A stretch of 64,000 nucleotides of DNA. It comes from Rubrivivax sp. (GTDB taxonomy: Bacteria; Pseudomonadota; Gammaproteobacteria; Burkholderiales; Burkholderiaceae_C). Location: NCBI GenBank assembly GCA_027484825.1, contig JAIXSE010000028.1, forward strand, positions 68,925 through 132,924. The letters are read 5' to 3'. The position numbers and the translations under genes were made by a program. Positions 15,484 to 22,585 of this stretch are shown here, one piece after another (the stretch's first letter is position 1; every line of letters starts with the position of its first letter). The notes beneath the pieces were generated by a model, which was not told the origin of the DNA, made no database searches, and saw only the letters and a program-made list of their open reading frames with translations.

Positions 15484-16623
15484 ATGACCGACACGCCGCG
15501 TGCTTCCTATGCCTCCCATCCTGCACAGAGCCGCGGCCGGCGATTTCCCGAGCGCCCGGCGCCCACGCGCAGCGACTACCAACGGGACCGGGACCGCATC
15601 GTTCACAGCAGCGCGTTCCGGCGCCTGGTCTACAAGACGCAGGTCTTTCTCAACCATGAAGGCGACCTCTTCCGGACCCGCCTGACGCACTCTCTTGAAG
15701 TCGCGCAACTGGGCCGCTCCATCGGCCGCAGCCTGGGTCTGGACGAAGACCTCATCGAAACCGTGGCCCTGGCCCACGACCTGGGCCACACCCCGTTCGG
15801 CCATGCGGGGCAGGACGTGCTCAACGACTGCATGCAAGCGCACGGGGGCTTTGAGCACAACCTCCAGTCCTTGCGGGTGGTGGACCAGCTCGAGCAGCGT
15901 TACCCCCAGTTCGACGGCCTCAACCTCAGCTTCGAAAGCCGTGAAGGCATCCTCAAGCACTGCAGCAAGCGAGACGCGCTTCGTCTGGATGCAGCGGAGC
16001 CCGGCGGCGTTGCTGCCCGCTTCCTGACGGGCGGGCAACCCAGCCTCGAAGCCCAGCTCTGCAACCTGGCCGACGAAGTTGCCTACAACGCCCATGACGT
16101 GGACGATGGCGTGCGCTCGGGCCTCATCACCTTGGAGCAGCTCGAGCAAGTGCCCCTGGTCAAGCGTTTCCTCGACGACACTCTTCGAGAGTTCCCGCGG
16201 CTCACCGGCAAGCGGCTCCTGGCGGACACCATTCGGCGCATGCTCTCCGAGCAGGTCTACGACATCATCGCCGCCACCCGAAGCGCCATCCAGCAAGCCG
16301 GCATCACCACCGCCGACGACGCCCGCGCGTCCGGCCCCCTGGTGCGTTTCAGCCCGGACATGCGGCAGGCCAGCACCGAACTCAAGCGCTTTCTCTTCGC
16401 CAACCTCTACCGCCATGCGGCGGTCCAGGACAAACGTGCGAGTGCCGAAGAAGTCCTTCGCGACCTCTTCCAGATCTACCTGAGCGACCCGTCCAAGCTC
16501 CCGCCCGACTGCGCCAATCCGGACGACCACCCCAGGGCCTGCGCCGACTACATCGCGGGCATGACCGACCGGTATGCGCTGCGAGAGCATGAGCGCCTGA
16601 CGGGGAAACGACTCTTTGGCTGA
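15484..16623 (+). CDS. dgt: dGTP triphosphohydrolase (HD superfamily)
   Basis: 'RTRLTHSLEV', 'LAHDLGHTPFGH', 'DYIAGMTDRYA'. Confidence 0.95.
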   Translation: MTDTPRASYASHPAQSRGRRFPERPAPTRSDYQRDRDRIVHSSAFRRLVYKTQVFLNHEGDLFRTRLTHSLEVAQLGRSIGRSLGLDEDLIETVALAHDLGHTPFGHAGQDVLNDCMQAHGGFEHNLQSLRVVDQLEQRYPQFDGLNLSFESREGILKHCSKRDALRLDAAEPGGVAARFLTGGQPSLEAQLCNLADEVAYNAHDVDDGVRSGLITLEQLEQVPLVKRFLDDTLREFPRLTGKRLLADTIRRMLSEQVYDIIAATRSAIQQAGITTADDARASGPLVRFSPDMRQASTELKRFLFANLYRHAAVQDKRASAEEVLRDLFQIYLSDPSKLPPDCANPDDHPRACADYIAGMTDRYALREHERLTGKRLFG

Positions 16624-16785
16624 TTCCTTGCGCGGTGCCACCGGAATGGGATTGGAGCGCCTGGCCAGGGGGAGGGCGTTTCGTCAGGTTGCCAGGTCTT
16701 GATGGGGGTGAGGGGCTACGACCCGTGCTTTGACGGCACTGCTGCACTGTCCCGATGCCGGGTCTCGTGAAAGTCCTCGGTTCGA

Positions 16786-16888
16786 AAAAGCTGCTGCCCG
16801 GGGCCCTTTTACGGAAGTCAAGAAGGGAATGGCCGGCGAAGCCGGACAGGAATGACATGAAGTAAAAGGGCCCCGGGCAGCAGCTTTT
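16786..16888. repeat. Perfect 27-bp inverted repeat pair with 49-bp spacer (REP-doublet/REPIN- or MITE-like)
   Basis: aaaagctgctgcccggggcccttttac (16786-16812) is the exact reverse complement of gtaaaagggccccgggcagcagctttt (16862-16888); the spacer holds the mini-hairpin ccggc-gaa-gccgg (16833-16845). Confidence 0.93.
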
Positions 16889-16914
16889 GAGCACCCGCCC
16901 CAAGCATCCGCCAC

Positions 16915-16929
16915 AATTGGGGACAGACT
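16915..16929 (+). repeat. Left ~15-bp inverted repeat flanking the RAYT-like gene
   Basis: aattggggacagact matches the reverse complement of 17639-17653 (aaatggggacagact) at 14/15. Confidence 0.85.
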
Positions 16930-16953
16930 CACTCCCACGTCCCGCAAAAGCAG

Positions 16954-17655
16954 ATGGCCCGCCTCCCCCGCCTCGCCTTGGCGAACCACCTCCACCACGT
17001 CATCCACCGCGGCCACAACCTGCAGCCGATTGCCCAGGACGACGACGACCGTCGTGCCCTGATGGCGGCTTTGCAGGACTGCGCCGCCACTTACAAGGTG
17101 GCCATCCACGCCTACGTGGTCATGCCCAACCACCTTCATCTCCTGGCCACCCCCACCACCAACGAGGGTCTGTCCAGAATGATGCAGGCCCTGGGCCGCC
17201 GCTACGTCGCTGCTTTCAACCAGCGTCACCAGCGCGTGGGAACGCTCTGGGAAGGGCGGTTCCGAGCAGCGCCCGTCGAAGCCGCCACCTTCCTGCTCCC
17301 GCTGATGCGCAGCATCGAACTCAACCCCCTGCGCGCCGGCCTGGCCACCGAACCCGCCGACTACCCCTGGTCGTCCGCCGCCCACCACCTTGGCCGCCGC
17401 CGCGACCCGCTCATCAGCGATCCGCCGGACTTCTGGGCCTTGGGCAACACCCCCTTCGAGCGGGAGCTCACCTGGCGCCGCTGGCTCGATGAAGGTGAGC
17501 TGGAGACTGAGCGCCAACGCCTGGTGGACGCCGCCATCAAGGGCTGGCCATTGGGATCGCCCGCATTTCTGGCCGCTCTTGCCGAACTCAGCCCCCGCCC
17601 CACCGCCCCCCGCCCCCGCGGTCGCCCCCGCAAACAGCAGTCTGTCCCCATTTAA
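16954..17655 (+). mobile_element. RAYT-like (Y1 HUH) protein with catalytic Tyr replaced by Ser and a C-terminal AT-hook
   Basis: 'MARLPRL', 'HHVIHRGHN', HUH motif 'AYVVMPNHLHLL' (H60/H62), 'GTLWEGRF', 'RSIELNPLRAG' (family YIxLNPxRAG), 'DYPWSS', 'PRGRPRK'. Confidence 0.9.
17639..17653 (-). repeat. Right inverted repeat, forming the last codons of the RAYT-like ORF
   Basis: agtctgtccccattt; encodes ...SVPI and runs into the TAA stop. Confidence 0.85.
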
Positions 17656-17682
17656 ACGACAAGCCTCCATCCGTCGCCCGCT

Positions 17683-17703
17683 AATTCGACACTGACCCCA
17701 TTT
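17683..17703 (-). repeat. Third related repeat copy upstream of the gltB promoter
   Basis: aattcgacactgaccccattt; reverse complement begins aaatggggtcagt, sharing AAATGGGG(A/T)CAG with the other copies. Confidence 0.7.
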
Positions 17704-17711
17704 AGTTCTGC

Positions 17712-17740
17712 TTGTGTGCGCCCCCCGGCGTTGCTAACCT
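17712..17740 (+). promoter_or_regulatory. Putative sigma70 promoter of gltBD
   Basis: TTGTGT-N17-TAACCT, with TGn extended -10. Confidence 0.5.
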
Positions 17741-17776
17741 GCGCGGGTTTCCCAAGAACTCCCCTGGAGGCCACCG

Positions 17777-22585
<4,809 letters not shown>

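Follow-up and report, generated by a model that had tools for sequence, protein, structure and literature searches.

TIR-associated tyrosine transposases (TIRYTs) are RAYT-like proteins whose genes lie between terminal inverted repeats (TIRs) with the consensus GGGGWSAS, and the complete unit has been named a TIRtron (Di Nocera, De Gregorio & Rocco 2013; PMC3733652). TIRYTs have since been placed in TnpA-Y1 subclass 2.1, where the same repeat consensus is quoted and which holds nearly all of the Group 1 RAYTs of Bertels et al. 2017 (PMC5581495), according to Quentin et al. 2018 (PMC6006769). Both the catalytic tyrosine (Y---NP) and the HUH motif are reported to be conserved in every TIRYT described so far, and the tails of the described examples are reported to include helix-turn-helix domains, namely Bac_DnaA_C, HTH_23 or HTH_28. 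RAYT and TIRYT genes are single-copy, vertically inherited and slowly evolving, and their role in the host has been an open question since they were first described. The subject of this analysis is a TIRYT/RAYT-like gene in a 64,000-nucleotide stretch of DNA (the window; contig C18:68925-132924) from a 5.66-Mb genome with 66% G+C, which is assigned to Roseateles by the names of close homologues of its proteins. The gene is accompanied by three copies of a short repeat, and gltB, which encodes the large subunit of glutamate synthase, lies downstream.

The locus shares several properties with TIRtrons. Its Y1 (HUH) protein is longer than TnpA-REP of E. coli and has a conserved C-terminal extension. 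The gene is located inside non-palindromic GGGGWSAS inverted repeats, one of which overlaps the 3' end of the open reading frame (ORF). It is a single-copy gene with vertical inheritance, and dispersed copies of the repeat are few or absent in many genomes. However, the catalytic tyrosine has been replaced by serine, and relatives have lost catalytic residues repeatedly, so that the protein is a descendant of the family rather than a catalytically competent member of it. Other differences are that the cassette is locked to one host promoter, that of gltB, across an order; that its right end is doubled, with a fixed spacing of 48-50 bp and an offset of 8-9 bp to the -35 hexamer; and that an AT-hook-like RGRP sequence, and no detectable helix-turn-helix, is found in the tail.

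REPtrons also resemble the locus. They are represented by TnpA-REP (RAYT, YafM) of E. coli with its REP/BIME sequences (PDB 4ER8) and by the RAYT-REPIN systems of Pseudomonas. TnpA-REP is the best structural match to the protein, REPtrons likewise comprise a single-copy, domesticated HUH gene between inverted cognate repeats, and in some sister genomes the repeat studied here forms REPIN-like inverted doublets. In contrast to REPtrons, however, the repeats are not GTAG-tagged palindromes and the genome of the window has no repeat population, and the protein lacks the catalytic tyrosine and is about 70 residues longer. A more conceptual likeness is to TldRs, which are nuclease-dead repressors derived from TnpB. 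TldRs are targeted by guide RNAs and their repression has been shown experimentally (PMC13622181). There, too, catalysis was lost from a nuclease of an IS200/IS605-type element, which has survived as a transcription factor directed to specific sequences. However, TldRs come from RNA-guided TnpB and not from Y1 TnpA, and at the present locus everything beyond conservation is inferred.

In the literature on RAYT, TIRYT and IS200 proteins in connection with gltB, no report was found of an order-wide linkage to gltB, of a doubled right end with fixed spacing and promoter offset, or of repeated catalytic loss with gene and sites retained. The pattern may have been missed because Quentin et al. left sequences without HUH or tyrosine out of their tree as presumed pseudogenes (PMC6006769).

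The cassette and its protein

From comparative sequence analysis, we consider it highly probable that a TIRtron was domesticated at gltB, that the repeats are its cognate sites and derive from its ends, and that the protein encoded between them in Roseateles is incapable of HUH chemistry. The features of the locus are listed in Table 1. An earlier note, made from the letters of the window alone, had described an inverted pair of repeats bracketing the gene, and both its coordinates and its letters were verified: positions 16915-16929 read AATTGGGGACAGACT, the reverse complement of 17639-17653 reads AAATGGGGACAGACT, and 14 of the 15 positions are identical. In total, three copies of CTG(A/T)CCCCA(A/T)TT occur, at 16915-16926 (+), 17642-17653 (-) and 17692-17703 (-), and belong to the left site (L), the distal right site (R1) and the proximal right site (R2), respectively. 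The core GGGGACAG is found in L and, on the opposite strand, in R1, and the core of R2 is GGGGTCAG. Because the general form GGGG(A/T)CAG fits the published GGGGWSAS consensus, the bracketed layout as such is already known.

Table 1. Features of the cassette and of the adjoining gltB gene, with positions in the window
Feature	Position	Strand	Remarks
Left site (L)	16912..16929	+	CACAATTGGGGACAGACT; left terminal inverted repeat of the cassette; AT-rich flank precedes the core GGGGACAG
TIRYT/RAYT-like Y1 (HUH) transposase homologue	16954..17655	+	233 amino acids; Pfam Y1_Tnp, 1.8e-10
Distal right site (R1)	17639..17656	-	Plus strand AGTCTGTCCCCATTTAAA; covers the last four codons and the stop codon
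Proximal right site (R2)	17683..17708	-	Plus strand TAATTCGACACTGACCCCATTTAGTT; 50 bp after R1
Inferred gltB core promoter	17712..17740	+	TTGTGT (17712-17717), 17-nucleotide spacer, TAACCT (17735-17740)
gltB, glutamate synthase large subunit	17777..22585	+	Pfam GATase_2, 1.7e-156; downstream gene

The repeats are rare outside the locus. When up to one mismatch is allowed, AAATGGGGWCAG has three matches in the window, compared with 0.35 expected from shuffled sequences, and none of 100 shuffles reached three. A weight matrix built on 69 orthologous sites assigns 30.2, 29.6 and 22.8 bits to the three local sites, and the next-best site elsewhere in the genome scores 17.2 bits. Because this matrix finds only the three local sites, the enrichment of the motif in promoters genome-wide, for which the earlier note had proposed a search, is not observed, and the motif is specific to the gltB locus. 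Scans of the 5.66-Mb genome for exact matches, for matches with one mismatch and with the weight matrix revealed no further credible sites that might form a regulon. The exact 12-mer occurs four times in the whole genome, with approximately 0.7 occurrences expected by our own estimate from base composition. Two of these copies are strays, one on contig C2 between a thiolase gene and its upstream neighbour, and the other on contig C21 ahead of a signalling gene; such a number is no more than chance predicts, and the idea of a genome-wide regulon was rejected. Also rejected were sequences of the form AAAAGGGGTCAG...CTGACCCCTTTT beside tRNA genes on contigs C6 and C22, which are hairpins that appear by eye to be terminator-like and share the core by chance.

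The fold of the protein is that of a Y1/HUH transposase. Its score against the NCBIfam model REP_Tyr_transpos (NF047646), 79.5 bits, is just under the cut-off of 80. An AlphaFold model with 72 homologues as input has a mean predicted local distance difference test (pLDDT) score of 92.4, and its top Foldseek match is 4er8_A, which is E. coli TnpA-REP bound to a REP hairpin (E 6.4e-9, target TM-score 0.76). When the sequence is aligned with 4er8, the segment ...LMRSIELNP... lies against ...HVDYIYINP..., placing Ser120 at the position of the catalytic Tyr115. The HUH pair is kept as H60-L-H62. All 22 intact Roseateles orthologues also have serine at the tyrosine position, or alanine in one case, within the context R-S/A-I-E-L-N-P, and distant homologues have R-Y-I-E-L-N-P. 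The earlier note had described the protein as nuclease-dead, and the absence of the catalytic tyrosine is borne out by the alignment to 4er8 and by the orthologues of the genus. Pairwise comparisons within the genus give a ratio of nonsynonymous to synonymous substitution rates (dN/dS) of 0.05-0.20 at synonymous distances (dS) of 0.5-1.7. These values imply purifying selection, and the gene is therefore not a pseudogene.

Beyond the Y1 core, residues 142-212 form a helical extension that is confidently modelled. Model confidence is low for the last 20 residues, which include the AT-hook-like sequence PRGRPRK. Within it, G223 and R224 are invariant and P225 is nearly so among 72 family members.

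A second TIRYT-like gene is located outside the window, on contig C4 (20985-21659, minus strand). Its product is approximately 35% identical to the protein of the window, and it is present in every genome of the genus. The paralogue has HYE in place of HUH, keeps the tyrosine and has lost the NP, and its longer tail ends in a helix-turn-helix-like sequence (LARELGLSVSRVSRLIAG). It may be a second conserved, catalytically compromised Y1 gene.

Conservation and phasing of the sites

The genus set comprises 23 orthologous loci from other genomes, whose proteins are 62-94% identical to that of the window. The earlier note had named conservation at orthologous loci as a check on the repeats, and L, R1 and R2 are present in the same orientation at all 23 loci, with column identities of 90-100%, even though synonymous sites are near saturation. 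An alignment from R1 to the gltB start codon consists of conserved islands between variable stretches. Column identity is 90-100% in R1 (TCTGTCCCCAWTTAA) and 30-60% in the 30-nucleotide spacer between R1 and R2. R2 is conserved together with its 5' flank (TAATTCGA..CTGACCCCATTTAGTT), and after R2 the sequence GCTTGTG, the sequence TTAACCTGCGCGGGTTT and the Shine-Dalgarno region are conserved, with a variable 17-nucleotide spacer between the first two. The distance from R1 to R2 is 50 bp at 22 of the 23 loci and 49 bp at the other. There is no sign of rearrangement at the locus in the 23 genomes.

The distance from the stop codon to R1 is far less constant, ranging from -3 to more than +100. 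R1 overlaps the stop codon in approximately six of the 23 orthologues, and in the others it lies 12-37 bp or more beyond the stop. In the window, the ORF ends with tct gtc ccc att TAA, so the sequence confirms the earlier note that this copy encodes the terminal residues SVPI. However, because the distance to R1 varies so widely, the overlap is an accident of a few lineages without special meaning.

The left site of the genus always conforms to (C)ATAATTGGGG(A/T)CAGA(C/T)T and lies 26-47 nucleotides before the ATG (23 of 23 loci). The earlier note had pointed to an overlap of this copy with a possible -10 hexamer, and CACAAT does lie at 16912-16917. As a -10 hexamer, however, it is unconvincing, because the TAA within the conserved CATAAT of the left site is the stop codon of an upstream dgt-like gene in many species. 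In a number of genus loci, among them L013, L008 and L011, this HD-domain gene has its stop within the CATAATT flank, and about 30 nucleotides separate the two genes. Because this distance is so short, the TIRYT gene is probably co-transcribed with aroB-dgt in these species.

Three further loci or genomes of the genus are of note. In L023 (G014:C1:2354134-2354819), the orthologue is interrupted by an in-frame TGA at codon 153 and the remainder is in another frame, owing either to a natural knock-out of recent date or to a fault in the assembly. None of the three sites has been damaged in this genome, and the spacing of 50 bp is preserved. In G013 and G016, whose assemblies are 96% complete, neither a gltB-linked TIRYT gene nor gltB itself was found, and the region may be missing from them.

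The association with gltB extends far beyond the genus. A scan of named genomes yielded 80 loci from Roseateles, Ideonella, Leptothrix, Sphaerotilus, Acidovorax, Polaromonas, Rhodoferax, Undibacterium, Massilia, Herbaspirillum, Collimonas, Janthinobacterium, Noviherbaspirillum and others; sites were counted with simple patterns that miss divergent copies, and genome sampling is without phylogenetic correction except in the parsimony count given below. In 74 of these loci gltB is directly downstream of the TIRYT homologue, and the upstream neighbour varies. The pair CTGTCCCYWWT followed by CTGACCCYWWT, in the same orientation, is found ahead of gltB at 69 named loci. R1 is of the T type (CTGTCCC) in 58 of these 69 loci, and R2 is of the A type (CTGACCC) in 68. 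The two are 48 bp apart at 33 loci, 49 bp at 26, 50 bp at nine and 56 bp at one, such that 68 of 69 spacings are 48-50 bp.

The distance between R2 and the gltB promoter is similarly fixed. When the 69 named pair-bearing loci are pooled with the genus loci, 81 of the 92 loci have a sequence of the form TTGnnn-N17/18-TAnnnT that follows R2 at a distance of 8 bp (43 loci) or 9 bp (38 loci). This phasing holds despite different hexamers, such as TTGTGC, TTGAAC or TTGCCA at the -35 position and TAACCT, TATCCT or TATTCT at the -10 position, and other intergenic distances vary widely, unlike these two spacings. The earlier note had placed a third repeat copy 8 bp ahead of a gltB promoter in the window; the coordinates are exact, but the promoter is weak by consensus. 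From the order-wide phasing, inferred positions relative to the gltB start are approximately -44 to -54 for R2 and -94 to -104 for R1, with the R2 11-mer ending 8 bp before the -35-like hexamer, and the AT-rich R2 flank (ATTTAGTT) would lie at approximately -40 to -47. A reading of the upstream region as a sigma-54/NtrC-type promoter was rejected because the GG and GC elements are, by eye, not 12 nucleotides apart.

Loci without the cassette provide a useful comparison. Eight gltB loci that lack the gene also lack the R1-R2 pair, and in five of them dgt is directly upstream. In at least one of them, L113, TTGTGA-N17-TACACT precedes gltB. Because a comparable element is present there, the promoter appears to be gltB's own, and the cassette lies right against it. 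Of 151 genomes sampled evenly from the order, 14 have the phased pair pattern, each of them once. In 13 of these, a TIRYT homologue with the same orientation lies immediately upstream of the pair, and the fourteenth match looks like an unrelated hairpin. Among the 71 genomes of this sample that have no TIRYT homologue, the phased pair was not found.

The sites might instead be components of the gltB promoter that are read by the C-terminal domain of the RNA polymerase alpha subunit (alpha-CTD) in the manner of an UP element, by a host regulator or by a nucleoid protein, with the TIRYT gene maintained on other grounds. In favour of this, R2 has an AT-rich flank where the proximal subsites of UP elements are located, phasing constrains the DNA and not the protein, and the interrupted gene copy L023 retains all three sites. 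However, the pair is never seen without the adjacent gene, its core is the repeat consensus specific to the family and occurs as a dispersed repeat alongside intact homologues, and an UP element leaves R1 (at about -100) and L unexplained. We therefore regard another binder as improbable.

Loss of catalysis and dispersal of the repeat

Most proteins linked to gltB look catalytically competent. HUH and tyrosine are kept in 61 of 81 gltB-linked proteins, and the remaining 20 are broken, with Ser, Cys, Phe, Leu or Met at the tyrosine position and/or with HUH changed to QH, RH, RQ, ER, QQ or HA; all of them are full-length. On a maximum-likelihood tree, the broken state requires at least eight changes by parsimony, at least three of which are forced by well-supported branches. 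The protein of the window belongs to a supported clade of five, all of which lack the tyrosine.

It is conceivable that the protein is still an active nuclease, using Ser120 or another residue on single-stranded DNA at the sites, because the HUH metal-binding pair, the IELNP helix and the overall fold are intact. Serine is not known to be the nucleophile of any HUH enzyme. Moreover, sister lineages either have Cys, Ala, Phe, Leu or Met in its place or no longer have the HUH motif, and because the residue varies in this way there is no common substitute nucleophile. The lack of dispersed copies and of rearrangement in the 23 genomes also argues against nuclease activity, which we judge to be very unlikely.

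The catalytic losses have mostly not been accompanied by loss of the right-hand sites, since 17 of the 20 broken genes retain the phased R1-R2 pair. Of the loci with the pair, in contrast, only about half have a recognizable left site, both where the catalytic residues are intact and where they are broken. Because a two-ended transposon would depend on both ends and the left one is absent from so many loci, the right-hand pair appears to be kept for something other than two-ended transposition. We argue that the better survival of this pair, together with its phasing, points to retention for a role at the gltB promoter.

The repeat is dispersed in some genomes whose homologues are catalytically intact. 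In three Burkholderiales genomes with tyrosine-containing homologues, GGGGWCAGAC is dispersed and clustered, with 43, 102 and 16 copies versus 0, 5 and 2 for a reversed control, but four genomes of Roseateles show background counts (13 copies versus 13 for the control in the genome of the window, for example). Six genomes whose orthologues are linked to gltB, all of them with intact HUH and tyrosine, contain 20-45 copies of the variant WTDGGGWCRGAST, compared with 0-4 of the control, and the copies are often inverted doublets 40-70 bp apart. This dispersal is missing from ten other genomes, including all three with broken catalytic residues. The earlier note's supposition that the repeats are former transposon ends or cognate sites is supported by their fit to GGGGWSAS, by dispersal of the core with homologues that have HUH and tyrosine, and by the occurrence of the pair only beside the gene.

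A clear example of dispersal is found in Ideonella azotifigens (G052, the genome of locus L036). Approximately 15 inverted doublets of ATGGGGTCAGAGT, all spaced by some 67 bp, are scattered over this genome (for example, C4:460830-460909). These doublets constitute a REPIN-like population of a gltB-linked, catalytically intact TIRYT. Collimonas likewise combines an intact orthologue with dispersed doublets.

These observations bear on whether the cassette is simply a TIRtron or transposon relic, in which R1 and R2 are two binding sites at the right end of a selfish or decaying element that has no host function and landed at gltB by accident. The layout matches described TIRtrons, and homologues located away from gltB (L027 and L030) also have one copy of the repeat upstream and several downstream. 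In addition, the 61 competent gltB-linked members include the six whose genomes carry dispersed copies. However, the Roseateles clade has neither the nucleophile nor dispersed copies, yet its three sites and 50-bp spacing persist at dS values of up to 1.7, and the offset of 8-9 bp to the -35 hexamer is held throughout the order. In addition, about half of the loci have kept the right pair but not the left end, which is the opposite of what is expected for transposition ends. A relic without function is thus unlikely.

A possible role at the gltB promoter

The explanation that we favour, with moderate confidence, is that a TIRtron became fixed at gltB and that its catalytically dead protein acts as a DNA-binding factor at its end-derived sites. 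The repeats probably serve as binding sites of the protein. On balance, the comparative evidence inclines us to think that these sites are still bound by the protein and that gltBD transcription is influenced through R1 and R2. A role of the repeats as operators, as proposed in the earlier note, is a possibility consistent with their conservation and phasing.

The following sequence of events would account for the observations. A TIRtron would have become fixed directly upstream of the gltB core promoter in an ancestor within Burkholderiales and would then have been inherited vertically. In the Roseateles lineage, the nucleophilic tyrosine has been replaced by Ser120, and because of this loss the enzyme can no longer cut and join DNA in the HUH fashion. 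Most probably, the HUH-fold core would still recognize L, R1 and R2, with the help of the C-terminal AT-hook sitting in the minor groove of the adjacent AATT/ATTTA tract. Because R2 occupies the region from -44 to -54, in which alpha-CTD and UP elements make contact, protein bound at R1 and R2 would be expected to set the activity of the gltBD promoter, either upwards or downwards. Protein bound at L would affect expression of its own gene.

Several points weigh against this explanation. Known HUH/Y1 enzymes bind single-stranded hairpins, and R1 and R2, unlike such targets, are not hairpins and have no self-complementary arm. R1 and R2 do not share one face of the helix, because a separation of 49 bp corresponds to approximately 4.7 turns. 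No helix-turn-helix was detected in the C-terminal domain by Pfam searches of 72 members (E values up to 1) or by Foldseek with the whole model, and the Pfam AT_hook match at residues 219-229 is below threshold. The gltB hexamers of the window match the consensus at only six of 12 positions, the promoter proposed at the left copy is likewise weak, and a scan for sigma-70 consensus promoters in 16500-17900 called none. No other promoter in the genome carries the motif, and a role as a transcription factor is thus not backed by a wider regulon. Finally, the fixed spacing could be an inherited architecture of transposon ends, kept because most members (61 of 81) look catalytically competent, and the synteny with gltB could be a frozen accident.

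The earlier note had also suggested autoregulation through the left copy. If this occurs, it is not a general property of the family, because about half of the loci in the order have no left copy. The left site may also act as an RNA hairpin in some species: in several relatives, L and a downstream CCCC arm form a strong fold (-12 to -20 kcal/mol, z -3 to -4.7), and compensatory variants of the hairpin occur, such as GGGGACAG/CTGTCCCC and GGGGTCAG/CTGACCCC. One might suppose that all of the repeats are RNA elements, with L a hairpin in the 5' untranslated region (UTR) that throttles translation as in IS200, and with R1 and R2 in the 3' UTR or in a read-through leader of gltB. Also compatible with this are the lack of an evident Shine-Dalgarno sequence ahead of the ATG and the result of a terminator scan of 16500-17900, in which none was predicted, including between the gene and gltB. 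However, the hairpin of the window is no better than those of shuffled sequences (z -0.86), R1 and R2 have no pairing partners, and a fixed offset to -35- and -10-like hexamers is a property of DNA. It is therefore very improbable that RNA accounts for the three sites.

A broader version of the DNA-binding explanation is that a Y1 transposase lineage has been recruited order-wide as a dedicated regulator of the glutamate synthase operon that works at its own former ends, with catalysis lost repeatedly because it is dispensable for regulation. The comparative data make this a tentative possibility whose chances we place below even. If true, it would be the first host function assigned to a TIRYT or Group 1 RAYT, and the Y1-TnpA counterpart of the TnpB-derived TldR repressors.

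The locus is an unusually clean test case for these ideas. It combines a naturally dead enzyme with only three cognate sites in the genome, two of which have a fixed position at the promoter of an operon central to nitrogen assimilation. Natural controls are available in sister genomes, namely an intact enzyme with dispersed repeats, a frameshifted gene and a gltB without the cassette. If the protein binds the sites and tunes gltBD, a transposase has been turned into a transcription factor by way of its ends; otherwise, some other explanation is required for a spacing that is so deeply conserved.

Two other sequence features are found near the cassette. In one subclade of the genus (17718-17734 in the window and the orthologous positions of L007-L020), the spacer between the -35 and -10 hexamers contains a conserved palindrome, GTGCC-N5-GGCAC. 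Across the order, including genomes without the cassette, the promoter spacer contains words resembling TGC(A/G)nTGCA. The palindrome and these words may be the site of a separate gltB regulator.

The second feature, at 16786-16888, lies between dgt and the left site and is a doublet of 103 bp formed by a perfect 27-bp inverted repeat, unrelated to the GGGGWCAG repeats. A search of this sequence against Rfam gave only spurious matches to miRNA hairpins. At many of the orthologous loci in the genus, dgt ends inside the left site, which leaves no room for such a doublet. The doublet belongs to a dispersed repeat family; its central 50-80 nucleotides are found at approximately 20 other places in the genome with 82-98% identity. 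Two of these copies lie on contig C21, at a distance of about 700 bp from the stray copy of the motif there.

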